Shown here: positions 1 through 58,691 of the stretch, in pieces
Position numbering within the stretch: position 1 is the first letter of the stretch
How the letters are laid out: each line of letters starts with the position of its first letter
Assembly: GCF_038025025.1 (NCBI RefSeq)
Contig: NW_027117348.1
Span: forward strand, 682,001 to 746,000
Source: Phyllosticta citribraziliensis
Taxonomy: Eukaryota
Direction of reading: 5' to 3'
DNA: 64,000 bases
Notes under the pieces: model-generated
Told to the model about the DNA's origin: nothing
The model's input: only the letters and a program-made list of their open reading frames with translations
Databases searched by the model: none
Position numbers and translations under genes: made by a program

Positions 1-3000
1 TCGGCTTGCCCCCCCAAACGACGTCCTATATTCCAAATTGCTGTAGCTCAGTGGCTGTTCCAGCGAAGTATAGAGAGTGGATGTGAACGCATCTTGGACA
101 AGGCAGCCAGCCTGGCCAGAACCACACTGGAGTCGGCTTCCGGAGAAGAAACCCGCGAATCCCTGGGAATCGTCTACCAGCGAATCCTGACATACAAATA
201 CTTTCGTTACGGCCCAATGGGCCTATATGACGCAATCACGCTGGGCTACAAACACGCAGAGGCAGTGGCTTGTTACGGTCCGAAATTCGTTGCGGCTCTC
301 TTCTACGACGGATTGGAAAATGTTAGGCACCTGCAAGAACGGATCACGGTCGTAAAAATACTCGACCGAGGCAATTTGCATCAAAACAAATATACGGCGA
401 GCGGAGGTCTCGCTATTCTCGACCTCGCAATCAAATCGTACGAGACGATTCCAGATGATGTGTCAGAGGCAAGGCTGTTAGGTTTGAAATGTCAAAGCCT
501 CGCCATCTGCTACTCACTGCGACATCAAGCCAATGCATGCCGAGGAGATCTCGAGAAGGCGCTAACTATGGGAGCAATGGCCAGAAAGTTGATTCCAAAC
601 AACGACCCCGAACAGAGTAGGACTCTGTACACTCTCGGGAAATCGCGCGCAATGCTGCACTTTTGTACCAGCAAGGTTGAGCATGTAGACGAAGCAATCA
701 TACTTTTCGAGGAGGCCGTGAAATTTGAGAAGGCAGATCCTGTTAAGCGAGCATTCTATGCAGGTGGTCTTGCTGGCGCCCTCCGTCTACGATACACTCT
801 ACTCGATGACACTAAAGACTTGGAGGCTGCGGGAAAATGGGTGATGGAGGCCATGGGTCCGAGTGAAGGCGAATCCGACAATATGTCGATACTTCTGATG
901 GTGCATGGAACCATTCTGTTCGACCGTCACCGCAAAACCGGCGATATTGACGACCTAAACCTTGCGATACAAAAGATTTCCAGAGCAAAGGAGCTATTTC
1001 CTGAAGGGCACTTTTTGTTTGCTCAGGCTTGTTTAAACTTTGGTTGGCCATACATGTGGAAGTTCCGAAGAACAGGACACGCCGACGACCTCGAAAAAGC
1101 TGTCGAATCGTTTCGACAGGCAGAGAAATCTTCACAGGGAAAAACTGCTCCTGATCCTGAAACATCGTTCGCATTTTCAAAGGGGCTTTTCATACAGTAC
1201 CAGACAACCAAAGACAGTGAGACTCTCGAAGAAAGCATCTCAATTCTACAGGAGGCGATATCGTCGATACCGACAGACTATACTTGGACACCAATTCTGA
1301 TGACCGAGCTTGGACATCGATTTTTCTATCGCTACAAGTCTATGTCTAACCCGTCTGACCTCGATGTAGCAGTTTCATATGCCGAGGGGGGGCTGAAAAT
1401 ATTTGGCAAAACACATTACCATTGGGGGCTCACTGCTCAACTCCTCTCCACCATGCTCTTTCAAAGAGCGGCAATTCTTTCAAGCCACAATGAAGCAGCG
1501 AAGTCCCAGCAGTTAGTACTGGAAATTGCAAAGAACACGGCTGTCCCACCCTGGCTCAGAGTACAAGCTGTAAGCACAGCAATCCACGGGTTTCGGAATT
1601 CAAACAAGCAGTTCCTACAGAGGCACGACGAGCTTGCCCGGCTTGCCCTCGATCTCCTCCCATACGCTTGCAGCCGCGAGCTGAGCCGCGAAGACCAGCA
1701 AGAAGCGGTGAAGCTCATCGAATTCTTTGCTGCCGACAGCTGTTCCTTGGCAATCCGACTCGGAAACTTCCCAGAAGCTCTCCACAGAGTCGAGTACGGC
1801 CGCGGATTGGTCTTGGGTCACTTGATCGACAGGCAAGACGACCTCGCGGACTTGAAGGAGACACACCCAGACCTGGCTCAACGCTACGAGAGACTTCGCC
1901 ACGAATCTACCAGCGAGCTTGAGGCCGAGAAGCTGAGCAAAGAATGGGAATTTCTGATGAAAGACAAGAGAAAGGCTCAAGCGAAGTTGCGGCAGTGCGA
2001 AGACGAAATTCGTTGCCAACCTGGCTTCGAACATTTTCAGAAGCCGCCCTCTCTGGAAGAGCTTGGACAGGGCGGACTGCATGGCCCGGTCATCATTGTC
2101 AACGTGACAGACTTTCGTTCCGACGCAATCATCCTCCTAAAGGGGTTATTTACTGCTATTTGCCTTCCTGGAATGGTGGAAAACATGCCAGATTACTTTC
2201 GCCAAGCTCTGGATAGGCAGCGATCTGGAGCAAGGCTTCCAGATACAGTGACAGGTGTTCCAGAGCTTTGGAAACATCCATCGGAAAGGTTTCGGCTCGG
2301 GACAAGCACATACTTCAGGGCAAATCGACCCGTCGAGAGAGACTACGGCCAGCCTAATAGCCTGGAGCTACTGACCTGGTTGTGGCATTCTTGCGTTCTG
2401 CCCGTCCTCTTGGAGCTCCGCGCACACGGCATTTCGCGAGAGGATGACGGCGATCCACCGCGAGTCTGGTGGATTGGCTCGGGAGCAGCAAGCTCCCTTC
2501 CCTTCCATGCCGCCGGGGACTTCGGAGCAATGTACCACGTCGAAGGTCGTAGGCAGCAGGCCTCTAGTGATTTTCCAAAGACATGCATGGATTGGGTCAC
2601 ATCATCCTACGCTCCAACCATCAAGGCGCTACAGCACGCGAGAGCGAGAGCTGAACAATCACCTCTTGTGGATCGTCCTTCAATCACCGTGGTCACCATG
2701 CCCTCGACACCAGGCCAGTCTAATCTGAAGGGAGCTCAACAGGAGAAAAAGGCAGTGGAAGAAGCGGCTACCGGTTTCAGCGTTGAAGACTCGCTCGAAT
2801 GCCCGACCGCCGCGGAGGTTTTGGGCCGCGTCCCAGATTCTCAGATCTTGCACTTTGCGTGCCATGGCATGTCCGATCCGATTGATCCTAGCGCAAGCCA
2901 TATGCTTCTCCAGAAAAAGGAACCAGATGGACGTATCGTACCAGACAGACTCACACTGGGAGACGTCTTGGACCGTACGGTCAAAAGCGGATCCCAGAAC

Positions 3001-3309
3001 TGGCTAGTCTACCTATCGGCATGCTCGACAGCCCAGGTAAAGGCCGACAAGATGGGCGACGAGAGCCTGCATCTGGCCAGCGCATTCCAAGTCGCCGGAT
3101 TCGCTCACGCAATTGGATCCCTGTGGTCAGCGGACGACGACATTTGCGTGGAGGTTGCGCGTCTCTTTTACCAAGAACTCTCAGAGTATACTGGTACCAA
3201 GCGCAAAGTTGCCGTTGCGCACGCTTTGCGCAAGGCGGTGATCCAAATCAGAAGCCGACACTACGACAATCCAGCTCTTTGGGCGCCCTTCATCCATTTT
3301 GGGGCGTAG
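1..3309 (+). CDS. TPR-repeat + CHAT (caspase HetF/clan CD) protease, 5'-truncated by the window edge
   Basis: Frame 1 is open from base 1 (SACPPKRRPIFQ...) to TAG at 3307-3309. Repeated helical units (GDIDDLNLAIQKISRA, GHADDLEKAVESFRQA, NPSDLDVAVSYAEGG) precede a coiled linker and CHAT motifs: GPVIIVNVTDFRSDAIIL, RVWWIGSGAASSLPFHAAG, SSYAPTIKAL, HFACHG (His codon 2863-2865), YLSACST (Cys codon 3022-3024), FQVAGFAHAIGSLW and WAPFIHFG. Confidence 0.92.
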   Translation, partial: SACPPKRRPIFQIAVAQWLFQRSIESGCERILDKAASLARTTLESASGEETRESLGIVYQRILTYKYFRYGPMGLYDAITLGYKHAEAVACYGPKFVAALFYDGLENVRHLQERITVVKILDRGNLHQNKYTASGGLAILDLAIKSYETIPDDVSEARLLGLKCQSLAICYSLRHQANACRGDLEKALTMGAMARKLIPNNDPEQSRTLYTLGKSRAMLHFCTSKVEHVDEAIILFEEAVKFEKADPVKRAFYAGGLAGALRLRYTLLDDTKDLEAAGKWVMEAMGPSEGESDNMSILLMVHGTILFDRHRKTGDIDDLNLAIQKISRAKELFPEGHFLFAQACLNFGWPYMWKFRRTGHADDLEKAVESFRQAEKSSQGKTAPDPETSFAFSKGLFIQYQTTKDSETLEESISILQEAISSIPTDYTWTPILMTELGHRFFYRYKSMSNPSDLDVAVSYAEGGLKIFGKTHYHWGLTAQLLSTMLFQRAAILSSHNEAAKSQQLVLEIAKNTAVPPWLRVQAVSTAIHGFRNSNKQFLQRHDELARLALDLLPYACSRELSREDQQEAVKLIEFFAADSCSLAIRLGNFPEALHRVEYGRGLVLGHLIDRQDDLADLKETHPDLAQRYERLRHESTSELEAEKLSKEWEFLMKDKRKAQAKLRQCEDEIRCQPGFEHFQKPPSLEELGQGGLHGPVIIVNVTDFRSDAIILLKGLFTAICLPGMVENMPDYFRQALDRQRSGARLPDTVTGVPELWKHPSERFRLGTSTYFRANRPVERDYGQPNSLELLTWLWHSCVLPVLLELRAHGISREDDGDPPRVWWIGSGAASSLPFHAAGDFGAMYHVEGRRQQASSDFPKTCMDWVTSSYAPTIKALQHARARAEQSPLVDRPSITVVTMPSTPGQSNLKGAQQEKKAVEEAATGFSVEDSLECPTAAEVLGRVPDSQILHFACHGMSDPIDPSASHMLLQKKEPDGRIVPDRLTLGDVLDRTVKSGSQNWLVYLSACSTAQVKADKMGDESLHLASAFQVAGFAHAIGSLWSADDDICVEVARLFYQELSEYTGTKRKVAVAHALRKAVIQIRSRHYDNPALWAPFIHFGA

Positions 3310-3506
3310 TGTCAAAGAAGATGTTTGTACACTCGAAAATGGCCTGCTATTACGTCAGGAATTTCATGCACAGTGACGTGGCGGTATGACCAAACTCGAC
3401 TTTTTCATTCGACTCCTAGACGTGGTTCGCCACGATGTCATCTCTTCTTCCACGCCAGATTCCATTTCTCGTCAATCCATCTTCGCCACAGCTGTTCTTT
3501 GATTCA

Positions 3507-4352
3507 ATGGCAGGCGCGACCATTCTGCTAAGCCATCTGCTTCCTGCGGAAGCTGTCGAGCTCGGTCGCCTGGTGATCCACCTTGAGTATCCGGAACAAG
3601 AATTTTTCCAGTCAGAGGACGCCAGCTTGAGCCCGGCGGGCATTCTTACGCAACGGCTCGACAACTTCCAACAAACGCTCGAGCAGAGCACACACTCCGG
3701 TGTCGAATCATATCTGTCAAACCTGCTTTCTGGCGCACGCAACAAGCAAAGGGCTTCGAGAATCAATCTTTCCTCTGCGGCATGTATTACACGACAGCTC
3801 CAAAACTCAAGCCAATATCTGGAAAGGCTATGCGCAACACGGCTAGGTCAATTCTGGCTGGAGCGCGCCATCCGAACTTCTCAGGATGTGTTTCTGGTTA
3901 CGGGAATCAAGACCGTGTTTGACGCGAGCGTGGAGAACGAGGCGTCGCACAGCTCTGGCTTGGAAGCGAAAGTGCAAGCCCCGTTGACCATGGCAGCCAC
4001 TGCGACAGGAGTTCCTGTCCCGATTGACGGGATGCTCGACATTGGGGCGCGAGCAAACAGATCAAAGATGCAGTCCAACAGCACCAGTTTCACGGCCCCA
4101 GGCGAACAGATATTTGCCGTTCAGTATCGAAAGCTTCGCTTTGCGAGGTTTTCAACCCGTAAAGTGGAGAATGCGAGGCTGGAGGGAGGAAATCGATGGA
4201 AGATGTATCTTGGAGGGAGGGGCGATGAGGACGAGGACTCTGAAGAGATTGTCAGCGTTGAAGTTGACGCTGGCCTTGAGGATGGCTTCGACTCTACGCT
4301 TTACGAAAGTGGCACTTTTGGCGGCGAGAGTTTCATCTACCCGGAGGTCTGA
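3507..4352 (+). CDS. Fungal gasdermin-like protein (RCD-1/HET-Q1 family)
   Basis: 281 aa from ATG 3507 (an in-frame ATG also lies at 3435), intronless. It shows the gasdermin pattern: VELGRLVIHLEYPEQEF near the N-terminus, DVFLVTGIKT, Ser/Thr-rich alternating beta-hairpin segments, GEQIFAVQYRKLRF, then an acidic C-terminal tail. It sits directly downstream of a protease gene. Confidence 0.82.
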   Translation: MAGATILLSHLLPAEAVELGRLVIHLEYPEQEFFQSEDASLSPAGILTQRLDNFQQTLEQSTHSGVESYLSNLLSGARNKQRASRINLSSAACITRQLQNSSQYLERLCATRLGQFWLERAIRTSQDVFLVTGIKTVFDASVENEASHSSGLEAKVQAPLTMAATATGVPVPIDGMLDIGARANRSKMQSNSTSFTAPGEQIFAVQYRKLRFARFSTRKVENARLEGGNRWKMYLGGRGDEDEDSEEIVSVEVDAGLEDGFDSTLYESGTFGGESFIYPEV

Positions 4353-7300
4353 ATATGCATCTCCGCCGGATTGTCGTTCGTTTCTATTGCTTGGTCTTTC
4401 AGGTTAGCAGAACTTCCAAAAAGAGTCGACGGCGGAACATGGTATTGTGTTTAAGGGGCAGCCATCGAGCAGCGTTGCTAAGCTCAGAGAGCCGACTTCC
4501 AGTACTGCGGGTGAACTAGGGAACAAAAGTTTCTTTCGACACCCACCGTAGTGCCATTTGCACCCACGTTGAAGAGCCAGCATGGTCTACCCCCGATAGC
4601 CGTTTTGCCGGCCCACCTTTCACCTGCCCTGTGACTCACGAATGCAATTCAAAGCCGACCACAGCCGCAACGATCATCAAGAACCGAAAGCCAACCCGCT
4701 GGCGATTGTTTTCTCTCCGTTCTGCTTGCTTGCCTTCTGCGTAGTCAGCTTGCACCCTAACAAAGCACGCCATTCCGCGGCCTGAGTCAGAGCAGCAGCC
4801 AAAAGGGTCATACTTTCTGCATGTCAATCTGAGAACGCCTTACGCCCTACGGGCTTAGCCGCCCCCAATCCAACTTTGTTTCAACGGCCTCTCTTGCCTT
4901 TCCTCCCGCAGACTTTTCCTGTCCTTTGATGTCGAAAAACGACTACCAATCTTTCTCCCCTGTTGTTGTGGTTTTGTCGATTACGAATCGAGAAGAATGG
5001 CCGCTTCCTTGTTGACATCGGCGTGGCGCTTATGCGCGACCTTTGTGTCGGCTTGATGGACATTACGATGACACATCTCGGTCGACCGCATTCCATCCTT
5101 TGCTGAAAGCGCAGCCCGGCACGATGCAAGGATCCAAGAGAAGAAAAGAAGAGGGGACGTCGACTCGAAAGACGATGGAACCATCGTCTTGCGCTGGCGG
5201 AAACTTCCGGGGCTTGCTGGGACTGGGAAGTTCGTGCAGAGCAGACGGATTCTGCGAGGAGTGTGAGTGCGTGTATCCAACGAGCAGGATGTAAGAAGAC
5301 CAAACTGGACGAGCGTACTGACTCTTGACAGTCGTTCAGCGACTCCACCTTTCATGTCCTCTCCAACCAGATCCGTCCCAGCTGTTGGGAGACGCGGAGT
5401 TGTTGTATGGGAATTGATTCTGGAAGGGTGGTGTGGAGCACGGGACGCAACTGCCTACATGTAGTCGGCGCCTTCCATTCAGCACAACCGCAGCTCCCCA
5501 ACTTTCTTGCCGTCAACACAACTTCTCCTCACCTCGACTTGACCAACTCTCCCTGCTTGAACGAAAAGCCTCAGCATGGCAGCCCCCCAACGCTTCAATA
5601 CTCCAACCAAGAAAATCCGACTGCGAGAGAAAATCACCGCGCAGAAAACCACCGGGTACGCGCTCTCCTCCTTTCGCTTGTTTGGGTTGCGCTGCAGCCG
5701 GATGAGAAAAGCCTTCAAGAAGTACAACAGCAGGAAACAGGCGACTCGGACCTTTGGCACGTTGGGAAGGACGATGAAGAGAAGCGCTCAGACCACCTAC
5801 TCAGTCAACCAACCAGAATCTCGCACCGACACTTTCTTGAACTTTGGTCTTTCCGAGCGTACTTTGGCCGTCGATCAGCTTGTGGCGATGCGCCTGCTGC
5901 TCGAGGCCCTCTGGCTCGTCACCCTCAGCACATGAGGTTTGAGGCGATCATCAAGGGACCTACCTCCTCGTTTTCCACCCTCCGCATCATTCGTATCCTC
6001 GACGTCCGCCGATGAAATCGCAGGCGGAAACATTTCCAGAGAGTGAGATGATATGCGCACGCTTCGCTACTCTCATCGTGTTTGCAACGAGAACGCTGCT
6101 AAAGCAGCCGCAATGCAGCAAGGGCACGGGACAGACTTGGAACAAGAGAGAAATAGCAGGAGACAGGAAGTTTTACAAGGAACAAAGGAATCGTTCGTCG
6201 CTCAAAAGCCTGCGATGCTGAGAGCCAAGGGGAAACCTGTGGATTCGCATGATGCGGTTGTTGCCGACACTGTTTGGGTACGATGCGTGCAGATGGTGCC
6301 CACGATGCTTGGCTTCGTTCTTCCGTCATCATCCTGTCTCAGTCAGTCCACTGCTTTCTTTCATCTCGGTCCTGTCTTGCAGACTCTGCGACACATTCTT
6401 GCCAAGTCTCAACAACCTGCTCTCCTTTGACATCTTTCTCTTGTCTCTGTTTTTCCTTTCTCTTACCTCTTCTCTCTACCCTCATTCTGTCGTATCTTCA
6501 CTGCGTTCCTTTACAGAGATTACTGTTTTCTTTCCAACATCTCTCCACGTCCACTTGTCGAGAATTACCGACTTTCGCCATTTTCTGTCTGTTCCTCATC
6601 GCCCTTTTCCTCTTCCGTCAACCGCCTATCAGACTGTCAGCTAGCCTTCGGCCAAGAGTGGGAGAGAGCGACACGTCGTCTGAATAGCAAGTAGCTACTG
6701 GCTCCTGCGAAGAGCAAGAGTGGGATGGGTGGGCCAACCATCCTCGTCGTCCTCCATCGTCAGCACGCCAGCCCCTACGCATCTTTCAGCACTCCGGATT
6801 CCAAGTGGCCCAGGATCAAAGGCTTGGCCAACCGGCTGGTGGGGTACTCGCGTCCATCGGAGAAGCGCGTCGATGGGCTACGCCAAGCCGAGCTTCGCTG
6901 GCTGTCTATCAGATACGACACGATAAGTACATATATGAACGGCATCTCGTCTGGTCAGTCCGTTGATGTCGCCAGTGGATGCGCGATAAGGCGACGCAGC
7001 AGCGATGCATGCGAATGTTCCCAGAGGCCATGCGCGAGGTAGATAGCTACCCAGATACCGCGATACCAGCGTCCGGGATACTCGCAATGGATAAGAGGAG
7101 CGGCTTCTCCCCTCTCCTTGACCTCATTTGTACGGATAGAACTCTCTGCCTGTCTTCCAAATCAGCTCGCCAGCTCTCCGGATTGGATATCCAGCAACCG
7201 CTACGACAAGAACCGCTCTTCTCGAGCAAGATGACTCTCATTCGCTCTGATCCGAAAACGAGGCAACGAAGTGTAGACGCAGATGAGAGCACTGCGGTCG

Positions 7301-8466: not shown

Positions 8467-10300
8467 CTAGCACAACCACTTGTACGCCTTCTTCCAGCGG
8501 GGCCAATTTGCCTGCTCGGCACGCTCCTCGGCAATCAGCTCGGCGAGATTGAACTCGCGGATGCCAGTGTGCAGATCCATGTTGTGCGCGCGCTGAATCG
8601 GCGGGCGGTAAATGAGCTTGTAGCCGAGGTAGAAAGCGATGACAATGGGGGCGGCAAGGTAGGCTTGGAAGAAGGAAGTGACGAGCTCCGAGGTGGTCAT
8701 GTCGGCGTATCCAATGGGCGCAAAGCCGGTCCAGAACTGGGCAATCAGGACGAGCACGTTGAAGCCGAAACCGATCCAGCTGCCGATGATGCCGGGCTGG
8801 CTGCGGAACGCCAGCTCGTCGAGCGTGTGGCCCTGGGCAGCCCAGCCCTTGCGGAAGCGAATGTGGGCCAGGCAGATGCTGCCCCAGGTGAAGATGGACG
8901 AGAGACCGGAGATGGCGAGCAGCCAGTTGAAGACGTCGCCCTCGGCGGGGGACGAGGCGATGAAGGCGAGGAAGCCTATCACCGAAGATACGAGGATGCC
9001 AACCATGGGGCGGCCTTTGCGGTCAATGTAGGCGAAGATTCTGGGCGCTTGGCCCTGCTCGGCCAGCGCGGCCAGCGTGCGCGACGAACCGTAAATGGAC
9101 GAGTTGCCGACGGACAGGACAGCAATCATGATGACGACGTTCATGACAGACGGCAGGCCGTCAATGCCGGCGTTCTTGATGGCAATGACAAAGGGCGAGG
9201 CCGCAGCATCGGCCGACGAGGATCCGCTCAGCAGGCGTTCGTCGTTGTACGGGACCAGCAGGCCGATGAGGGCCAACGAGACAATGTAAAAGAGGGTGAT
9301 ACGCCAAAAGACTTGCTTGACGGCCGTGGGCAGCGACTTGCGCGGGTTGGCCGTCTCAGCAGCAGCAAGACCGACGAGCTCAGTACCGGCAAAGGCAAAG
9401 GCGGCCGTCACAAAGACACTGCACAGGCCCTTGAAGCCGTGGTTAAAGGCACCCGGATCGCGCCAGTACAAGTTGCCAATGTATCCGCCCTGGGGCCCAC
9501 CGCCGCAGTTGAGGATGATGCCGAGGATGATGAAGCCAATGACGGCCGTCACCTTGACGATGGAGAAGACAAACTCGGCCTCGCCGTAGCCCTTGACGCC
9601 AAACAGGTTGATGCTAATGATGAGCACCAGGAAGATGGCGACCCAAGCGGAATTGTCTATGCGGCCCTCGTTCCAGTAGTTGACAGTGATGGAGGCGGCG
9701 ACGATTTCGAGGGGCAGCACGACCAGCCACTGCAGCGCGTAGTTCCAGCCCATGGCGAAGCCCCATGCGGGGTCGATGAAGCGGGTCGAGTAAGCGGAGA
9801 AGGAACCGGCGACGGGGAACAAGACGGCCATTTCGCCCAGGGCGTGCACCGTGCAGTACAACATGATACCAATCAGACCGAAGGAGATGAGCAGCGAGGC
9901 GGGACCGCCATTGGCCAGAGCCTTGCCGGAGCCGACGAAGAGACCAGTTCCTACGGCAGACAGTTAGCACCGAATGCGACACCGGCGAAGAGGACGGCGA
10001 CGACGTACCAATTGAGCCTCCAATGGCAATCATTTGCAGGTGGCGGCCCTTGAGGGTGCGCTGGAGCGGCGACTCGGCCGTGGCTTGTGCGGCGCTCTCA
10101 ACGTCGTACTCCTTGGCTTCGCCGCCACCGTGCGAGACGGGAGCCGTGGCGTGGGCGTTGGGATCGCGCTTGAAGCTGTCGATGAAGCGGCGGCTCCATG
10201 ATTCCTGGTGGTTTGCGGCCTCGCCGTAGACTGGGGGCGGCGGCGACTGGTTGGTGCTGGCCTTGTAGACGCCCTTTTCGTGGTCGACGGACACGGACAT
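8467..10300 (-). CDS. General amino acid permease (APC/YAT family, GAP1-like); exons 10300-10009 and 9950-8467
   Basis: Starts MSVSVDHEKG. LKGRHLQMIAIGGSIG joins TGLFVGSG across a 58-nt intron (GTACGT...GCTAAC...TAG, 10008-9951). Later motifs include ALGEMAV, GWNY, YGEAEF, FAFAGTELVGLAAAET and SPFVIAI, with many hydrophobic helices. Confidence 0.93.
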
Positions 10301-18809: not shown

Positions 18810-19625
18810 TTACAACTCGTTCGTCGGCTCGGTTCCGGGGAACTTGCGCGCAAACGAAACCAGCGTGATAACCTGGTCGACCTGCAGCGTGTTCGGATTG
18901 ACTCCAGGGTTGACAGCGCGGATTGCACCTTCCGAGCTGCGGTACCTCCGGCCAAGGATGTAAAAGGTGTCTCCCGCTTTGATCTTGTACGGTGTCAAAT
19001 CGGCCGAACTGTTGTCGCAGATTGGTATGTTGACCACTTGACCAATGTTGACAACGTCTGGGTTTGGAATGTTCGCCTTATTGGCTCCTGTGAGGGCATC
19101 CAATGTGATGTTGAAAGCTCGCGCGAGTGCTCCGAGAGTGTCCCCTGATTGGATGATGTAGAAGCCAGGGCCTCCGTTGATGCAAGTCGCGGTGGGAACG
19201 ACCGTGGAGATACAAGAAGTGCTGTCAGGGAAGCAGACCTGAGGGGGGATAATAAGGGTAGCACCAGCCAAAATGTAATCCGGGTTACTGATGTTGTTAA
19301 ACTTGGCAATGTCGCAAATGCCACGGTTGAACTTCTCCGCGATCTTCGTGAGAGTGTCGCCTTGTGGGATCACATAGGTTTGCGTGGTGGTATCGAGAGT
19401 GATGGAGCCGTTGCAAACTGGTGTCGATGATGTGTCAATAGCGATGGTCAAGTCGAAGGATGTCGTGGAGACCTCACGTTCTCGAGTCTCCAAGTTATTG
19501 ATCAGGGCTCGCTTTCCAAGACGTCCGACGACGTTCAAATCAGCAGCATCGGGATATGCCTCAGGCATCGCAGCAGCGAAGCCGAGGAGGGATGCTCCGG
19601 CAGCCACAAGAGTGATGAGACGCAT
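18810..19625 (-). CDS. Secreted 3xLysM chitin-binding protein (Ecp6/Slp1-like effector)
   Basis: Signal peptide MRLITLVAAGASLLGFAAA and a KR site, then three LysM motifs: YVIPQGDTLTKIA...NPDYILAGATLIIP, YIIQSGDTLGALA...NPDVVNIGQVVNIP and YKIKAGDTFYILG...NPNTLQVDQVITL. Intronless. Confidence 0.92.
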   Translation of the reverse strand: MRLITLVAAGASLLGFAAAMPEAYPDAADLNVVGRLGKRALINNLETREREVSTTSFDLTIAIDTSSTPVCNGSITLDTTTQTYVIPQGDTLTKIAEKFNRGICDIAKFNNISNPDYILAGATLIIPPQVCFPDSTSCISTVVPTATCINGGPGFYIIQSGDTLGALARAFNITLDALTGANKANIPNPDVVNIGQVVNIPICDNSSADLTPYKIKAGDTFYILGRRYRSSEGAIRAVNPGVNPNTLQVDQVITLVSFARKFPGTEPTNEL

Positions 19626-21859
19626 GTCGAAAACGTTCTTGTTTTTGCAGTACCTCTAAGATGTCGTTGGAGACGGTATTGGGGAGTCTGTCGGGATAAA
19701 GGGCGGCTAACGACGAAATAAAGACGGCACAAGTTACTCTTTAAAGAGCGGTGACATGGAGAGGGGCAAGCTCCCTTCCAAGCCTGGGCAGCTCAATGAA
19801 ACTCAGAATCAAGCGCAACCTTAACGCTGCTCGCAAAGCTCGCCATTCGATGTCCGATATTTGCCGTTGTGGAGCGTCTTGGTATTTTTGGGGACTCATG
19901 AGTGGTGGCGGCGGTTTGGGTTTACTCGGAAACGCTGCTGTCAAGGAAGTGAATAGCCGTAAACTCTATTTCAAACAAGGTGACTCGACACCTCTGAACC
20001 CTCCCCGCGTACCTGCATGCACGTACGTCATGGCTTTCCCTGAATGCCTTGGGCTACACAGGGCTGACAACGGGTGACGACGTTGGAAAAGGGTCTGCTG
20101 CCGGTTCGTTTTGCTGATGATCGTGCCTCGCGACCAAAGGTAGAGCGTAGAGCTGGAAGGGAAAATAGTCGAGCGCTAGCAGGCATAAACTAGCCATCCC
20201 GACCTGAATCGACAACAGGTACCAGGGGAAATTAAAGCTCGAGGCCCTTCTGCTAGGGCTCCCCGCCATCGATCCCAGAGTCGAGAATCTGAAATCTGGA
20301 CGGATTACCACCTTTGTCAACTGCCGACTGCCAACCCACGATGTATTCGGCGGCGAGTTTCGTAGCATGGCATTCTCATGACGCGCATTTGACTTGCTGA
20401 TCTGCGTCTTGTCGATCTCTGAGCCGCTGTCATGGGCGCTCATGATTGAAGCGCTTCGAATGGCTGACTGAATATTTCAAAATATGCGTCTTTTTGCGTG
20501 GTGGCATCTGCGACTGCAGCAACATCCTGGGGCAACAAGGCAGATCGCCACGTGTGCCTGATTTTCTTGACCGAATCTGCAATGATGCAGCGCAGACTGC
20601 TGTCCGGGACAAAGGGTAAATGGGTGGAATACGACGACGAAATTTCCTGTTGTGAGGCGCTCTGCGACTTTGAAAGGAGCGGTCCGAATCCTGCAGATGG
20701 TGTTGGCATGGACGACAGGCAAACTTTGCCTGTTGTTGAAGAGAAGCTCGATCCTTGCGGGGTTTCCTTGCTGCGACTGTTGGCACGGCCAAGCATCTTC
20801 TTACGGGGAAAATGCGCCTTGGCAAATGACTGGCACTTGGATGGTATGTCGCGGTGAAGAGTCGTATGACAAAATTTTGAGCATTCGCTTGTCTAGGCCG
20901 ATTGGCAAACTACGTCCAGTTTGCCGGACGGATTGCTTTTTCAGCTCGATTCAACCGAATGGACGCGAATCGTCGAGCGATGCATGCAGCAATGGTGTGC
21001 CACTCCTTGCGCTGAAAGAGTAAGAGGTATCATCTGTCGCGACAGTCACAGGAATGGGGAGACAAGAGACCGACACAGTATTAGCCGTCAAAGAACGAAT
21101 TACCGAGTAATCAGCCTTGTAAAGGCGCTGGCAGTGGCTGTGAATCCAATTCCTCGGTGTGCTTCACTCGTATTCTCGGACGCCGCCACTGAACACCGCA
21201 GAAAGTACCCACTTAGGGATAGGCTCTGCCAAAGCAAAATTTGGCGGAAGCGCGGAAGATTCAAGCAGGCCCAACGTGGGCAGAAGTGAGGGTAAGGTTT
21301 TGTTCAAACCATGTTTTCCCGCGCAAGTTGTTGTTTTGAAAGCGGCAGAGAGGTACGGCCCGACAGGCGGTATTCGCCATCAGATGACTTGTAGAGACGA
21401 TTCGGTGAAGGTTGATCATGCGATGAAGTGATCCAGGGCGTAGGCGCGACGAGGTGGATGGGGATGAGAAGAGAGAGCAAGCGGACAGACTGCGGAGTGA
21501 ATCGTCAGATCAGGACAGCAAAGGATGTCGACATCTCGACGAGGTTCCTTGAGGGTTGTCTTCGTCGTGGCAGCCGGACGGCATAGCGGTACCGTTCACG
21601 CGCTCATGAAGTTGTGGCGTCCATGAGAGGGGGCTGGCGCAGCACTCAAAACAAGGTTCTGAGCCCAGGCCTCGCCTGCAGCCCCCTACAGCTGCGATTG
21701 GTCGGAGCTCGGCACTGGAAGTCACGCTAGCCCAATTCGGAAACGCCCCCGATTTCACGCCCCCTCGCAGCAAGCTCCGCAGAGGACAACACTTGGTCAA
21801 AACAACGCGCAGCAGCAAAAGAATGCATGAAAAAGGCAAAAAGAATTTGGATTCTTACG

Positions 21860-30706: not shown

Positions 30707-32053
30707 TCATGCCGCCCCATACAGACTATTGACCGCCATCGCCAACGCTGCAACCTCCGTATTTGGCGCCGATGCGTCTTTATCCGATGCGCCAAAGAGG
30801 TCCATGTACAAGACGTTTGGATACGATTGGCTTGTAAAATTGACAAAAGCCTGCTGGAACAGCGGCTCGTAGGCCTTTTCGGCGAGCTCGAGGATGGACG
30901 TTGCGGCGTTGATAACGTCAAGAGCGTCTTGAGTTAGGGTCCACGAGAGCAAAAAGAATGTAGAGTCGGGATTCTTGCGCTGAGTGTGCAGTTTGGACAG
31001 CTGGTCGGCGACCATGGTATTAAGATCGTTAGAGTCGGCGTAACTGTTGTAGATGGGAAACGAGTTGCCGCTGTTGACGATACCGGCAGTGAACGCGGCG
31101 CTGGGTAACGAAATTCCTGTTGGGAGCTCTGTGACAAGGAGAACACATGGCCCATCCCCGATGAATGAGGACAGCGTCTTCTTGCTGAGGTCCGTCGAAG
31201 TCGTCAGACCCGTCGTGTTCAAGCGGTGATTGATCTTTTGCAGCTCTGCGAACAGAGTCTCCCAGTTGGCCTGCGAAAAGTCGGCATAGTCGCTGTCGGC
31301 ATTGTAGGCGTGCGAAATATCGAGAATGACGAGCTCGTTGTACTTGGACGTGAAGTCATTGATTTGCGAGATGATTTCGGTCAGAGACTGACCATCGGCA
31401 CCCTGCCAGCCGAGCACATCAACGTCACTGTAGTGTCCAGTCTGGAAGGATCCGTTCCTTAGTATCGGCCGAATATCGAACCACCTCGAGCCCGCCGTGA
31501 GCTGCGTCGCGATATCGAACTTTTGCGTAATGGTGTTTTGCTTCGTCACCAGATCAGTGTGTGTGCCAAACTTAGACATGCCTGCATCATGACTGCCAGG
31601 CATGCAGATATGGCGGATTTGTCGATCGCCAAGCAACGCCAGGTTCTGATGCATCCAGTCCACTGACGCGCCATTCGAGGTATAGCTCCCGTCAGCGCCA
31701 CCCAGCACCCAGTTGACATAAGATCCGCCGTTCCAGCCGAGGTTGATGGTGCTACCCTGAGCGTTGTTTTGCGTGGCCAAGTCGACTAGGTAGACCTCGA
31801 GGTTGAAACCGTCACGGTATCGGGCCTGGACTTGGAAGCTGGAAGAAGTGCCCCCCACCGCATAGACAGCCTCGCCGGCGTCGTCTCCCAAGCTCTTACC
31901 GGCCGCAACATGCCACTGGACGTAGACTGGCATAGATGCTCCCGATGCGACTGTGCTGGGAAAGGACCAATTGTCCATTTGGTAAGAGTGCGAATACGAA
32001 AGTGTCCATGGATGCGGAGTTGCATTAATCAGCTCGACGTAGCCGTTCGACAT
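30707..32053 (-). CDS. PI-PLC X-domain (PLC-like phosphodiesterase) protein with an N-terminal beta-rich domain
   Basis: Likely start MSNGYVELIN (ATG 32053), with a TATA-like TTATAAG at about 32150. Motifs ICMPGSHDAGM, QLTAGSRWFDIRP, TGHYS, ELVILDISH, LLSWTLTQ and YPNVLYMD. The upstream ORF extension to 32359 is probably UTR. Confidence 0.85.
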   Translation of the reverse strand: MSNGYVELINATPHPWTLSYSHSYQMDNWSFPSTVASGASMPVYVQWHVAAGKSLGDDAGEAVYAVGGTSSSFQVQARYRDGFNLEVYLVDLATQNNAQGSTINLGWNGGSYVNWVLGGADGSYTSNGASVDWMHQNLALLGDRQIRHICMPGSHDAGMSKFGTHTDLVTKQNTITQKFDIATQLTAGSRWFDIRPILRNGSFQTGHYSDVDVLGWQGADGQSLTEIISQINDFTSKYNELVILDISHAYNADSDYADFSQANWETLFAELQKINHRLNTTGLTTSTDLSKKTLSSFIGDGPCVLLVTELPTGISLPSAAFTAGIVNSGNSFPIYNSYADSNDLNTMVADQLSKLHTQRKNPDSTFFLLSWTLTQDALDVINAATSILELAEKAYEPLFQQAFVNFTSQSYPNVLYMDLFGASDKDASAPNTEVAALAMAVNSLYGAA

Positions 32054-33103
32054 GGCTGATGGTACTGGAATAATGTAAAGAAAGTGTAGGAAACGAAGGA
32101 ACGAGAGACTGTGGCCTACCTTGACCCATGGTTGCAGCAGGAAGAGACTTATAAGGGGCGGAAACAAAGAAGCGCGGGTGTAGCTGGGGGCGCTATGCAT
32201 ACACAGCCCGGATCTACGCACATTTTTCGAAACACACGGACTAGACAGCTCCTTTAACTGTTTGGCCAAGAGGTCGAGGAAAGCGCCTCGAGGACGAGGC
32301 GTATGGACGAGGATGCATGTCGAGAGCGCAAACAAGTCCCGACTGACAGCCAATCGCACGGGAGAGGACCATGTGAAGCAGACGAGGCAGAGAGAAACAT
32401 GATGAGGCAGAGAGGGGCATCAGCAGGCGCCGAGTCGATCCTAGTGGAGAAGGTGGCAGAGCAGGGTGTCGAGATGGCGGCTTCGTAAGGCGAGCGGTGA
32501 ATGATGAGTGGACGGCCACGCAGCCAAACGGCAGCACGTGCATGCGAGGATAAGGACAGACACGACGGAGCGCCAGACGAGGCAGCGCGTGGCTGGACGC
32601 AGTGGCTAGACCAGGCGCGGGATAGAGGATGGCGATGGACGTGATGGTGTTGAGGGGAGCTGGGACTAACGCAGCGACTGACGTGAGGAGCCGAGGCCGT
32701 CGACATGATCCTCCCCCTTCGGTCATGGTCCGCTGCTGCACCATCCACCATCCACCATCCACCATCCCCTGTCGGCGTCGCCCTCCCTCCTCAACACCAG
32801 ACTCGACCAGGGCATCCTCAAAGAGCCGTCCGTCGTCATTCTTAGCCAGGCATCCGAGCCGACGGGGTCCAAGGTCGCACCCCACCCGAACCAGGGCTCC
32901 GGCGGCCCGTCCCCAGGAACCTAAGCTACCACCCAACACAGCGCCCGCCCCGTGTTGACGCCCGCACTTCGCGTCCGCGTCCTCGACCACCGGTATCGCT
33001 CCACCGAGCGACGCGTTTCTCCTGTTATTGCTTTTGTCCGGCCCGTCGCCTACTTCAAGCCCTCCCACTGCTGTGCTCCGCATTGAGACACCACGCGCCC
33101 CCC

Positions 33104-34753: not shown

Positions 34754-36790
34754 ACCAGGGACCGCGTCGATGATGCTCGAAGCTGGATTGAAAGAGGCTG
34801 GTGCGTGGACCCAAAACCGATGGTGCAATTGTCGATCGGGCTTTCACAAACCTTCCCCCGAAACGTGTACTCTTACAACCCTGCCCGCAGTCTCTCACTG
34901 CACTTTTGTTATCTCGCACGGCGTTTGGATGGCTGGAGTCTGGCCTGGGGCGTCCCGGAATCGGATGATGGACACTGGATGGCCTGGCTGCGATACGGCC
35001 GATCCCTTTCTCCTTGATTGCTTGTCGGATTCTTGCAGATCAGTCCTTGATTTTCCTCTCTAATTTGTTCCATTTCCTGGGTTGACGCAGGACGGGACGG
35101 GACGGGCGGCAGGTCTCGCGGCGTTTTGAATGGTTGGATTGGTGGAAGGAGGCTGTGTGTTGCAAAATACCTCGTCTACCTACCTCACTTTCCTTGTTCT
35201 CTTCCTAGTCACCTCTGTAGTTTGGCTCGACCTGATTGATTCGGTCGAGGTTTCATACCAGGGTCTTCCTAATTTCAACCACGGTTCCCACGGGCGAACT
35301 GCTGCGATACTGTTTACTCGGAATCCGGCCAACCGAAGCGGGAGGATTGCATGACATGGCATGACATTGCCGTCTGCAGGAAATCTCTGAAAGGGGCAGA
35401 AAGACGGCAATGATGACGATGGGCGGAAGTACGTCCTGCGCAATGCGTAACGGCGACAGTCCTTGCATGCCGGTGGTGCAGGTGGAAGGTTCGTCCCGCC
35501 GCCCCGCGTCGGACCGCGACCTCGAAGTGCATCAAGTCTTGTGCTGTATCTGCAGCTGGCCTGGCCTGCACCAAAAGAACAGGGTTATGGTTGGAGTCGG
35601 AGGTTTGGAGTGGCAGCGCTATCAACTCCTCGTTGCTTTTTCCCCAGTCAACCCCACACCCATCTCCACACCAGCAAATCGCCGACCGCCAGCGCCCTTT
35701 ATCCGTCACCGCCAATTGACGTTTATCATGCATCCGCATTGGCGGGAAAAGGCAATTCTCGACAGAAAGAGCCATCGTCCATCAACCAACAGAAAAATTG
35801 CGCTGGACGCTGCAGGCCGCGACGTCATGGCTCCATGCAAGGAGCGTTCTGTCGCCTTCAACGCAACGCGACGCAACGCGCTGCCGTCTCCCCTATCTCG
35901 TCGTCTCGCCTGATCAGTCCTGCACTCGCCCGTTGCCGTACGACTACGACTGGGCCAACTTGTCGACGGATGCGATGCCGGGCGCCCCGCTTGAGCAAGA
36001 AAGCACCGTTTCCTCCTCGACGACTTGCTGAATCGATTGTCGCTCACTTGCGATTGGCCACTGAGCCATGCATTGTCTGTGAATTGCATGCAGGTACCGG
36101 CAGCCGCAAAATGTGAATGGTCGCATCGGGGACTTTCTGAGGCAGGTCGATCTTGTCGCTTTGAAGGACCACGCCTCGCAAAGGTCACGTCAGCGACCCT
36201 GGCCTTCGATGGAGGCCTCAAGAGAGCGGTATCGCACATGTGGCCAATCGGGGAGCATCCATGGCGCTGCTCATCTTGTCCATCCTGGTCGCGTTTTCCC
36301 AAAGTCACTTCACGCAGCGTGTTGCGCACTGCATCTTTGCATCTTTTTGAAGCTTGCCCTATATTTCGGGCGGGGCTTGTCTTTCTCTTGGATGGCACAA
36401 ACACTCGCCGCTTGGACCTTTGGATCCTGGACGTCTGGTCTCGACGTTACACGCGCGACTGCAAGACGCGTGGGCACCGTTGTCGTGTCGCTGTGACCGT
36501 GCTGTCTCAGCCTCTAGTATTTGCGCATGCGGTGCCCAGGCAAAGCATGAGGGTGGTTTAATAAACAGCTGTGCCTCTCAATCGCCTTGAGCTCAAATTC
36601 TGTTGGTGTCGTTTTTGATGTTCGATTTTTGAGCAATCTCCTGCGGCCATTGAGCTCGATTCTTCTTTCTCATTCAATCTCTTATTGTGAGTTTCTCCTA
36701 CTCCTGTGTATCTGATGATCTATACTCATGATTGGTACAGCTTGACCGTAGGACTCTGCTCCGCGTCTTTCGTTCGACTTGCATCCGGGA

Positions 36791-39700
36791 ATGCGCTTTG
36801 ACTCGAGCGATTCATCAGAGAGCAGGTCTGAGTCGCCTGACCCATACCTCGTCGAGTTCATGGAGCCGGAATGGATGGATGAAGCGGACGACGATCATGC
36901 ATCAGAGTCCTCAGAGTCAGAAGAATATTCGCCTGGTCGGGAGCAGGCGATGATAGACTCTATCTACTTCAACCCCGAAATACCGCGTGGGTCACCTGAA
37001 ATCGGCCTTCCAACGACACCGGTCCTTAGATCGAAGACGACCGAAGAGCTGGTAGCCCGAGAGCCTGGCGAACAAACAGTGAGCACCGACAGTCATGTCT
37101 ACGACCCAGTAATGTCACCGACCCCGCAGCCGCGACGTGTGGAGATTCCGGAAAGCTCTCCATTCAACACAGACTATGCATCCTTCCCGTCGAGTCCATG
37201 CTCCAAGGACTGCGACTACGAGGACGACGAGCCGGAGACAGTTGGCGCCGACCCTGACGATCCTGAAGCCCTATTCAGGCCGCGACGTCCAGAATGGTAC
37301 CATCCCCACACGAACATGTCGAACCAGTATTTCGAAAACAACAAGAATCCGCCTCAGCTACTTGAAGACTACGACCATTGGAAAAAGGAGACAATGACAG
37401 TGGTTCTCATAGCCGGGTTCAAAGAATTCGCCAATGGCAACCTCGACAACCATCGGGATTCCATATTCTTCCGGGCAGGCGACCGAAAGGCCTTTGGTAT
37501 CATCACGCGTGCAATGGAGAGAGGAATACCGGGGCTTGAAGAGGCGGTCGAAAAACACGTTCGGGACGGCAACTCATCCCCTTGGCCGATGCGCGATTGG
37601 GTCATTGCCGGGCGATGCGCGCGGGACCCCAAGGGAAAACGAGGGCTGCTTCCCGCGGAGATTGCTATCACGTCGCCGGATGCTTTCAACATGACGTCGA
37701 AAGACCTTTTGCTGGCTTTGGACGAAGTTGGCAAATGTGGTTTGAATACGCCCGAGTCCATCTCTCCTGGCCCTGTGTTGAATGCTCCCGGACCCTCTAC
37801 TCTTCCTCCCGCTTCTTCTGTCCCTCACCTTGCATCAAATGCTCCTGGAACTTCTGCACTAGCTACTACATCAGCTCCTGAGCAAGCTCCTGAGCCTGCA
37901 TCGACATCGAATGCTCCTGGACCCTCTACTCTTCCTCCCGCGTCTTCTGCCCCTGGCACAGCATCGGATGCTCCCGGTCCCCCTACACTAGCTACCACTT
38001 CGGCTCCTAACCCTGCGTCGAATGCTCCTATACCCTCTACACTTACAATCGCCTCGAACCCTGGTCCTGCATTGAATGCCCCCGAACCCTCCACTATTCC
38101 TCCTGATTCGGGTGGCACTTCATCTGCCCCTCCCCCGGCCTCTCACCCCGGCCCTCCGTCCGCTGATCCAACCGAACAGTGGTATAACCGCCGAGATCGC
38201 TACATCGAGGAGCTAGACCCAGAGGAGGTCTTCGCGCAATGGCGACGGTTCTTTTCCAGCAGCCTCTCAGACAACGGCGGGTGTGTCAAAGACTTTGCCA
38301 AACATTTGGACCAGCAGTGCTACGACTTGGAGATCTTTCGCAACCATTCCGAGATCCCCATATGGGTGAAGAAGATGCAGTTTCTTCACGGCCTGCCGGA
38401 GGGATTCGCCCGAGCCAAAGCAAAGTTCTTGAGAAAACATGGGCGACGGCTATTTCGTCAGGATCCCGAGCGCGATGGTCAGGGCCGTGTAATGGAGGGC
38501 AATGCTAGAGCTGTGACTTGGGATTATTTGGTCGAAGAGATGGAAAAGGAGGAGGCGCGTCTGCAGGGCAAAAGAATGAAAGCTATGGAAACAACGGGTT
38601 ATGAACCAGTGGAGAGATTTTTGGAGGGAGGTGAGGGGAATGCTGATGAGCAGCAGCTCATGAGAGAAACAGCCGAGTCGGAGAAAAAGGCCAAGAAGGA
38701 CGTGCAAGATTCAAAAACGATATGTCCTATTTTCAAGGAGATTCTGAGGGATAGGTTCCATGTTGCAGCCGAAGGTGCCGCCAGTCATGCCTCTAACGCT
38801 CCGCCGACTCGCCAGGAAAAGGTACCTTCTCCTTCAAACCTACCCAACGCCCCTCTCCGCACTCCCTTTTACCAATTCACCTCTTCTCGAAAACGCGCTG
38901 ACCCAACAAAGGACGCGCTCCCTTCCAGGAGTTCTTTGAAGCAACCGTCGCTGCCAACTGCCAGCGGCTCTTCTGTTGCTGCTGCTGCTGTCGCCGCCGC
39001 CGACGCTACCATCGCACCACCTAGGAGCGACAAGTCCAAGGGAAAGTCAACACCGACGGAGAAGGTCAAGACGAAAAAGACCACCAAGCCGAACCCGCCC
39101 GACACGTCCAGCAGCAAGACAGCGACTGCGCAGTCCAGCGCTTCAACGAAGAAGGAAAGCGACTCTAAACCACCCAGTTCTTCTGTGACAAAAGCCGTCG
39201 ATCCGCCCGAAGCACCCAAAGACAAGACCAACCTGGAATTGCCCAGAACGCCTGTAAAAAGGCCGAAGTCTGTTCCGCAGAGCGTGTCCGAAACCAAAAA
39301 CATCACGTCCAAGCAGCCCAGCACCACCGGGTCCAAGGTCATCAAGTGCGAACCGCTCAAAGTCCCTCCGAAGAAAACCATCAAGCTCGATGCCCCAGTG
39401 ACCTCCAGCAGCGAAGTTTTCAAACATGAAGCGCCCATCAAATCTGACAGCCAAGGGGAAACGGCAATAATCCCCTGCACCCCTCCTCGGAAGACGATCA
39501 TCGACCCACGTCGAATCGACGTCGACCCCGACACGCTGCCAGACTACTGCAACACGTGTCGCAAGAGCGGACACGCCGATCGCACGCGGGCCTGTCCGCG
39601 CTTCGACCCAGTCAGTGGCGTCATTGTCGGTCGCGACGTCGGACGCGCTCTGTTGCCAGGGAAGACGGAGCAGGGGCGCTTGCTGAAAGAGAGGGACGAG

Positions 39701-58369: not shown

Positions 58370-58691
58370 TTTGTTGGTTTGGTGCAGGGGCTTGGGCTGG
58401 CGCAAATTCAGTGGTGTGTTTGAGGCGTGGAGAGATGATTCACAAGACAAACGAGTCCTTGGTTCGACGAACAAAAAGTCAATGCGGACATCCCGTCTTT
58501 CCCAACATGATTCTGACCATGGGCCTCGCTTCGCTGTTGTACGCTAATTCCAAAGCGAACCAGGTAACGAATGCCTCTGGGGTGTTGAGCCAGTCCACCA
58601 TAAAATGCCACACAACCGCTCGAGTCGGCAAACTCATTTCACCTCAGCCCTTTTCGGAACACACTCCAAAACAATCCACAAAGAAGTCAAG

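Follow-up and report, generated by a model that had tools for sequence, protein, structure and literature searches.

Where is a fungal gasdermin cut when the gene beside it encodes a CHAT protease? This question is raised by a gene pair in a 64,000-nucleotide stretch of the Phyllosticta citribraziliensis genome (assembly GCF_038025025.1, contig NW_027117348.1, positions 682,001 to 746,000), which is referred to here as the window. All positions below are counted from its first letter, and both genes lie on the + strand. The 3' part of a probable TPR-CHAT protease gene, recognized by its match to the Pfam CHAT family, occupies 1..3309 and runs off the 5' end of the window. It is followed at 3507..4352 (stop codon 4350-4352) by an intronless coding sequence whose translation is a protein of 281 amino acids (aa), for which a structural model predicts a gasdermin fold. 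A first-pass annotation of the window had proposed that this gasdermin is activated by a cut after an arginine just ahead of its acidic tail. Our comparison of relatives and the predicted structure point to the same place: the bond between R238 and G239 (codons AGG and GGC, 4218..4223) is probably the activating cut, with a probability that we put at roughly two in three. The assignment is based on the conservation of the alignment column and on the position of the site in a predicted loop.

The codon of R238 is AGG at 4218-4220, with GGA-GGG (G236 and G237) before it and GGC (G239) after it. The surrounding protein sequence reads RWKMYLGGR up to the predicted bond and GDEDEDSEEI beyond it. 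Relatives were collected by a word-indexed search, which gave 14 proteins including the window's own, and by an exhaustive HMMER search of 1.84 billion representatives, which gave 866 matches with an expected value (E) <=1e-3, 473 with E<=1e-10 and 57 with E<=1e-30. The family alignment comprises 159 sequences drawn from the best 150 of the 866 HMMER matches and the earlier relatives; a longer database form of the window's own protein (P0002) was left out and P0016 was trimmed to its C-terminal part. Four of the 159 have no readable site column, two being truncated (P0031 and P0125) and two locally misaligned (P0056 and P0098). Tallies of the residue seven places after the conserved Trp, and of the positions around the cut, use 154 or 155 sequences, and tail statistics use the 153 sequences with a tail of at least 20 aa.

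The column of R238 is the 13th most conserved of 281, with R in 143 of the 159 sequences, K in 9 and M in 3. The sequences with Met are P0091, P0110 and P0129, from Fonsecaea erecta, Fusarium oxysporum and Beauveria bassiana, and all three are CHAT-linked; the accessions of the three are EXM24802.1, KGQ09542.1 and OAP64430.1. The alignment column of G239 holds G in 97 sequences, S in 17 and A in 14. Counted as the residue directly after the site (P1'), the tally is G 93, S 19, A 12 and T 6, so that 130 of 155 relatives have a small residue there. Positions P2 to P4 are variable; the commonest residues are G at P2 (23/155), G at P3 (54/155) and L at P4 (28/155). The first-pass description of a Gly-flanked Arg is therefore borne out for the P1' side but not for the glycines that precede the Arg. 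It had also named a check on its prediction, a conserved Arg-Gly ahead of an acidic tail in homologues from CHAT-linked loci, and this pattern was found in the relatives: the counts are those just given, and all tails are acidic. Among metagenome relatives, all 5 that are full-length and distinct have R at the site. A scissile bond in a variable, exposed loop is expected to show just this pattern, a lone conserved basic residue with a small residue behind it.

Counted from the ATG at 3507, a cut after R238 would release a predicted pore-forming N-terminal fragment of residues 1-238 (3507..4220), a designation based on its fold and on its computed composition (26.3 kDa, isoelectric point (pI) 9.2). 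The first-pass annotation had correctly given this fragment as 238 aa, the tail as 43 aa and the Arg as 4218-4220. The fragment length depends on the start at 3507, and the list of open reading frames (ORFs) offers an alternative ATG at 3435, in frame on the + strand. Use of that ATG adds the 24 residues of 3435..3506 and gives the database form P0002 of 305 aa. Of the 159 aligned sequences, 96% have Met in the column of 3507. Met also occupies this column in 12 of 13 close relatives, with which the gasdermin coding sequence is colinear from the start Met through the C-terminus; P0007 has a predicted N-terminal extension ahead of its Met. The start at ATG 3435 was set aside, as the start column of the family coincides with 3507, and judging from the alignment the upstream extension is probably not part of the protein. 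The base at position -3 is A before ATG 3435 and T before ATG 3507.

On its predicted structure the protein is a gasdermin, and the identity claimed in the first-pass annotation is in this way upheld by fold, not by sequence. The sequence matched no Pfam family at E<=0.1 and no PADLOC model. A search of the PDB with the single sequence found no gasdermin, only 4 guanylate kinase matches with E of 0.6-1, and a 14-sequence profile found no gasdermin in the PDB either, only 1 unrelated match with E of 1.2. A first AlphaFold model, built with 14 sequences, had a predicted local distance difference test (pLDDT) score of 61; with this model the first 18 rows listed by Foldseek contained only gasdermins, the best being the RCD-1 pore 8jyz (E 9e-6). 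A second model, built with 130 relatives, reached a pLDDT of 82.7 and a predicted template modelling (pTM) score of 0.78. The first 25 rows given by VIA-align for the second model were all gasdermins, with Z falling from 10.8 to 5.4, and cholesterol-dependent cytolysins appeared only below Z 5.3. The highest-scoring were the RCD-1 pore 8jyz_B (Z 10.8, root mean square deviation (rmsd) 5.9, 184 residues aligned) and RCD-1 8jyy_G (Z 10.1, rmsd 3.6, 162 aligned). For the bacterial gasdermins the alignment covers model residues 2..279 and so includes the tail (7n50, Z 7.0; 7n51, Z 6.8).

The position of the predicted site relative to its surroundings is regular on one side and irregular on the other. 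Its anchor is W231 (4197..4199), the most conserved residue of the protein (W in 156 of 159), which lies 7 residues before the site, as it does in 120 of 154 sequences. The spacing between the site and the first strand of the tail is variable, mostly 8 to 23. In HET-Q1 the fragment 1-238 is toxic and the fragments 1-237 and 1-239 are not (Clavé et al. 2022), and the combination of fixed and variable spacing fits this requirement for an exact end. The second model places the site in a predicted loop of residues 235-245 (4209..4241), between strands 230-234 and 246-253. The predicted position in a loop matches that of the Leu-Gly site of the Runella zeae gasdermin, which sits in a loop of ~12 residues (bioRxiv 10.1101/2021.06.07.447441). 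The pLDDT of the loop block is 75-77 in the second model, against ~95 in the core, and was <50 in the first model.

Beyond the site lies a 43-aa acidic tail, a predicted inhibitory peptide by its composition (residues 239-281, 4221..4349; 4,636 Da, pI 4.05). It has 15 D/E and zero K/R, while residues 208-238 have 10 K/R and 2 D/E. This abrupt switch from basic to acidic, which was pointed out in the first-pass annotation for the one protein, is found across the family: in the relatives the median net charge is +5 for the 31 residues ahead of the site and -14 for the 153 tails, the least negative of which has -2. The median tail length is 44 aa (5th to 95th percentile, 35-83). By this comparison of sequences the switch is a family trait and not a chance feature of one protein. 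The conserved tail positions fall within the three predicted strands of the tail. The first strand in the second model is residues 246-253 (4242..4265), with conserved hydrophobic columns at 248 (V/I in 103 of 159), 249 (V/I/L, 147), 251 (A/V, 142) and 253 (L/V/F/I, 141). The other two strands (266-271 and 274-279) form a C-terminal hairpin, residues 266-279 (4302..4343), in which E274 is present in 110 of 159 sequences and position 278 is F or Y in 96 of 159, as part of the aliphatic/aromatic triplet F276, I277 and Y278. As 7n50 and 7n51 align through model residue 279, the predicted tail spans the region of the bacterial gasdermin inhibitory peptide. By analogy, we infer that the 43-aa tail inhibits the N-terminal domain.

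The genes next to relatives of the gasdermin were compared as well. Clavé et al. 2022 (PMC8851545) catalogued 1,884 het-Q1 homologues, 353 of them next to CHAT genes and 1,187 linked to S8 proteases. The accessions of all 9 relatives that were looked up in their Dataset S1 are present in the column 'het-Q1 genebank ID'; 6 have a CHAT neighbour, 3 have none recorded and none has an S8 neighbour. Thus KAF4540836.1, in the same 90%-identity cluster as the best match P0003, is paired with the CHAT protein KAF4540838.1 (P0165), which is 59% identical to the CHAT domain of the window, and KAF3012604.1 (P0009) is paired with KAF3012603.1 (P0170). The CHAT protein P0162 and the gasdermin P0281 of another Lasiodiplodia assembly have adjacent locus tags. 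The only fused form found is P0016 of Neopestalotiopsis clavispora, a 1422-aa gene model in which CHAT (850-1139) precedes gasdermin (1143-1419); it is either a natural fusion of protease and substrate or an annotation merger of two neighbouring genes.

A metagenome scan with the 14-sequence alignment gave 9 loci encoding relatives. L001, L003, L004, L005 and L006 are full-length and distinct; left out were L002, whose statistics equal those of L001, the stop-containing fragment L007, and the short pieces L008 and L009. The gasdermin relatives of L001 and L004 are 43% and 38% identical to the window's protein (tblastn) and keep the R. In each of these two loci a Peptidase_C14 gene lies tail to tail ~410 bp downstream (E 1.7e-17 in L001, 1e-19 in L004), and the contig of L005 and L007 has one Peptidase_C14 gene as well. 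The products are not CHAT proteins but metacaspase-like proteins of 650-770 aa, assigned by Pfam, whose C-terminal halves have no Pfam match (L001:6254-8206(-), L004:6249-8405(-) and L007:506-2803(+)). Ten of 11 PDB sequence matches of the L004 neighbour are metacaspases, the best being AtMC4 (E 1.8e-10). Of 101 long ORFs at the metagenome loci 71 were scanned, and none of these showed a CHAT or S8 domain; the others are 20 of L002, the duplicate of L001, and 10 that overlap the gasdermin match. A tblastn search of these loci with the window's CHAT protein gave matches only in repeat regions. Metacaspases cut after Arg or Lys (bioRxiv 10.1101/2021.06.07.447441), and metacaspase-like neighbours therefore point to the conserved Arg as P1; they are the strongest independent hint for this assignment of the R238 column. 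On the contig of L005 and L007 a DDE transposase lies between the C14 gene and the intact gasdermin, with the gasdermin fragment on the other side. At L001:3-2603(-), ~2.4 kb upstream of the gasdermin relative, there is an ORF with AAA ATPase, AAA lid and TPR matches, and the CHAT relatives P0175, P0179 and P0257 likewise carry AAA ATPase domains.

The protease of the window itself matches Pfam CHAT (PF12770) with E 1.6e-32 and 113.6 bits, against a cut-off of 24, over residues 758-1070 of a 1071-aa reading from position 94. The full database form (P0161) has 1234 aa. A search with this protein gave 1085 relatives at E<=1e-5, many of which also have the TPR families PF13374 or PF13424. The window's own protein matches no TPR family in Pfam at E<=0.1; its residues 132-436 match TPR-bearing ORFs by tblastn. 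Its translation contains the catalytic His H924 (codon 2863-2865) in an HFACHG motif (2851..2868) and the catalytic Cys C977 (codon 3022-3024) in an LSACST motif (3013..3030), each conserved in 59 of 60 aligned CHAT relatives. The sole PDB sequence match is the Craspase TPR-CHAT protein 7zoq, which is weak (E 0.8), and the alignment spans both motifs, with H924 falling on the CHG of 7zoq. A candidate acidic determinant of the S1 pocket is the Asp triplet D1014-D1016 (3133..3141) in the translated sequence GSLWSADDD. D1015 is present in 60 of the 60 relatives, D1014 in 42 and D1016 in 30, and Craspase has WEAYPR where the window's CHAT has the triplet. D1015 is only a candidate for a part of such a pocket, and the triplet as a proven S1 pocket was set aside. 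Joint modelling of CHAT residues 740-1071 with the gasdermin gave no usable complex (0.00, 0.34 and 0.00 in three runs), which is evidence neither for nor against an interaction.

The two genes are separated by 198 bp from the CHAT stop to the gasdermin ATG in the ORF list. With the CHAT gene ending at 3309 and the gasdermin starting at 3507, the protease gene lies within 10 kb of the gasdermin gene. Both ORFs are intact, with the catalytic residues in place, and for both proteins the nearest named relatives belong to Lasiodiplodia and Phyllosticta (60-65% identity). Judged by sequence, the pair is an orthologue-level member of the set already catalogued, and it is best explained as a fungal cell-death module of two genes, similar in kind to HET-Q1/HET-Q2. 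A look-up of RNA data sets for 2900-4500 gave none. Sequencing contigs from three public runs of unspecified kind cover 2900-4500 without differences or joints; they have no bearing on expression. One of these runs has a 1,484-base contig that begins at 3323, 14 bases past the CHAT stop, and spans the entire gasdermin coding sequence, and another has a 4,156-base contig across both genes.

The most similar characterized system is Q1-6/Q2L-6 of Podospora anserina (Pa_6_6615/Pa_6_6610), in which the isolated CHAT domain processes the gasdermin Q1-6 and a cell-death reaction follows (PMC8851545). It has an N-terminal TPR region, a C-terminal CHAT domain and an adjacent HET-Q1-like gasdermin, an arrangement that the pair described here probably shares, and Dataset S1 of Clavé et al. 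lists orthologue-level relatives of our pair as CHAT-linked. The main text of that paper gives no Q1-6 cut site (the word 'arginine' occurs 0 times). HET-Q1, according to Clavé et al. 2022 and Su et al. 2026, is 278 aa long, with an inhibitory tail of ~40 aa (~5 kDa), and is cut after residue 238; the window's gasdermin, at 281 aa, has a tail of 43 aa and would be cut after the residue of the same number. Unlike the window's gasdermin, HET-Q1 has Phe238 as P1, with L237 also mattering, and the enzyme that cuts it is subtilisin-like, a serine protease of the S8 type. HET-Q1-like members have C-terminal peptides of 38-43 aa (Su et al. 2026), and the 43-aa tail with its preceding loop, a predicted inhibitor on the model, is of this short kind. 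The same source reports that the C-terminal peptide restrains the membrane binding of both HET-Q1 and the bacterial gasdermin (bGSDM). The first-pass statement that fungal and bacterial gasdermins are held by a short C-terminal peptide, about 5 kDa in HET-Q1, agrees with this literature.

The first-pass annotation had also argued that CHAT relatives such as separase cut after Arg, and this does not settle the specificity. In the Runella zeae bGSDM system, as described in a preprint (bioRxiv 10.1101/2021.06.07.447441), a Roc-COR-CHAT protease cuts after Leu247 and the Leu-Gly dipeptide is critical, so that membership of the CHAT family alone does not predict Arg. The identification of the Arg as P1 is supported instead by the conservation of its column, the small P1' residue and the predicted position in a loop. 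The Runella protein, as described there, resembles ours in its P1' Gly and in the pore formation by its cleaved N-terminal domain; it differs in its 21-aa tail, its role in anti-phage defence and its palmitoylated N-terminal Cys. In the fungal family the site residue is Arg, Lys or Met, and the tail, ~44 aa long, is strongly acidic. Bacterial gasdermin peptides are held by Phe residues on the core sheet (same preprint), and the window's tail with its hydrophobic strands resembles them. A more distant comparison is mammalian GSDMD with caspase-1, which shares the fold (6vfe, Z 7.1; 6n9o, Z 7.2) and also has a clan CD protease that makes one cut in an exposed linker. The P1 residue of GSDMD is Asp. 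There a large helical C-terminal domain acts as inhibitor, and the inflammasome recruits the protease, which is not fused to sensor repeats. RCD-1 of Neurospora crassa is a fungal gasdermin and the best structural match (Z 10.8 and 10.1), but it is a bare N-terminal domain that has no inhibitory tail and acts uncleaved (Su et al. 2026). No mapped cut site for a CHAT-linked fungal gasdermin was found by full-text literature searches or in the accessible portions of the main text of Clavé et al. 2022, a commentary of 2022, reviews of 2023 and 2025 and the 2026 paper on the HET-Q1 pore. The type of gene pair is thus known, and the predicted cutting point was not found described in the literature searched.

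Several observations weigh against R238 as the activating P1 residue. Three CHAT-linked relatives have Met at the site, which is not basic, and 3 of the 9 traced relatives have no recorded protease nearby. The placement of the site in a loop is taken from a region of moderate confidence in the model, with the block pLDDT of 75-77 given above. An Arg conserved in 90% of relatives could also serve the N-terminal domain itself, by binding lipid or as a latch to the tail. In the window's CHAT the residue two before the catalytic Cys is Ser (LSAC), at the place of the Asp of metacaspases (LDCC in the L004 neighbour). The Craspase TPR-CHAT protease cuts after a hydrophobic residue. The only mapped CHAT-gasdermin site, that of Runella, likewise follows Leu and not Arg, according to the preprint. 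Finally, the relatives with traced neighbours are CHAT-linked, C14-linked or without a recorded protease, and Arg is at most a possible mark of clan CD linkage as opposed to S8-linked clades.

Three other explanations were considered. One is that the CHAT protease cuts elsewhere in the linker, in the manner of a caspase, perhaps behind one of the Asp or Glu residues in the acidic stretch 240-247, and that R238 is conserved for another reason. CHAT is related to the caspases, positions 241-247 are D or E in most relatives (the D247 column has D in 102 and E in 23 of 159), and the linker after R238 varies in length, as linkers open to proteases often do. We nevertheless consider this unlikely. 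No acidic position from 240 to 246 is conserved in register, and D247, which was set aside as a caspase-type P1, stands at the start of a predicted beta-strand, with V or I after it in place of a small P1' residue. A caspase pocket that binds Asp needs basic residues, and the active-site region of the window's CHAT has the invariant D1015 with a mostly acidic neighbour instead. The protease neighbours of close relatives, moreover, are metacaspase-like.

The second explanation, to which we give slightly less weight still, is that R238 serves the structure or function of the gasdermin itself (a tail latch, a lipid contact or the end of the last core strand) and that activation depends on another protease or another bond. 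The fixed distance from W231 and the basic character of the surrounding segment speak for it, and both HET-Q1-N and bGSDM-N bind acidic lipids (Su et al. 2026). Against this, P2 to P4 are variable, the residue lies in a lower-confidence predicted loop and not in the core, and the small P1' residue, which scissile bonds typically have, lacks an evident explanation in the structure. Met can form neither a salt bridge nor a phosphate contact, which argues against a salt-bridge role of R238; the Met of the three CHAT-linked relatives may instead reflect a changed specificity of a pocket that accommodates long, unbranched side chains. The third explanation, that the tail is not a cleavable inhibitor, is very improbable. 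Here the protein would act uncleaved like the RCD-1 gasdermins, which are its best structural matches and are activated without proteolysis, or the pair would be non-functional in this strain. The family, unlike RCD-1, has kept a tail of ~44 aa with conserved hydrophobic positions, the two ORFs are intact with their catalytic residues present, and a related TPR-CHAT/gasdermin pair is processed in P. anserina.

Activation by a cut at R238 suggests the following sequence of events. In the resting state the 43-aa acidic tail would fold back on the basic N-terminal domain as three short strands and keep it off membranes, by analogy with bacterial gasdermins and HET-Q1. The predicted TPR region would keep the CHAT domain inactive until a cue arrives, by analogy with Q2L-6, which needed truncation to its CHAT domain for activity (Clavé et al. 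2022). On a cue sensed by the repeat region, the CHAT domain would cut the exposed loop 235-245 after R238, with G239 as P1', a step suggested by the conservation pattern. The tail would then be released, leaving a 238-aa fragment that ends exactly 7 residues after W231. This basic fragment (1-238) may bind acidic lipids, oligomerise into a membrane pore and kill the cell, by analogy with HET-Q1(1-238) and the Runella bGSDM.

The rest of the window contains ordinary fungal genes. There is an amino acid permease at 8467-9960(-) (Pfam E 2.7e-156) and a partial AA_permease frame at 47024-48052(+) (E 2.2e-59), which covers profile positions 183-463 only and is probably one exon of an intron-containing gene. 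Two genes are of the secreted-protein kind typical of filamentous fungi: 18810-19652(-), encoding a protein with three LysM domains (E 1.3e-33), and 58548-59567(+), an ORF with a weak match to prokaryotic-type phospholipase A2 (E 5.6e-7). At E<=1e-5 Pfam gives no match for two long open frames, 36752-40264(+) with 1171 aa and 30707-32416(-) with 569 aa.

The gene pair does not reveal a new kind of system. Pairs of gasdermin and protease genes are the fungal counterpart of pyroptosis, and the conservation of the predicted site across 159 sequences would provide a rule for annotating the active fragment throughout the clade. A wider reading, for which the chances appear to us to be evenly balanced, is that a fungal gasdermin clade of at least 150 clusters at 50% identity shares one activation switch, a basic residue that stands 7 places behind an invariant Trp and has a small residue after it, and that both TPR-CHAT and metacaspase-like C14 proteases act on this clade. 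The fungal gasdermin-linked CHAT proteases would then have a metacaspase-like specificity for Arg and Lys, unlike the Leu-specific CHAT of Runella, and the Met variants would be lineages in which protease and substrate switched together. A confirmed cut after R238 would mean that the P1 specificities of CHAT domains include both hydrophobic and basic residues.

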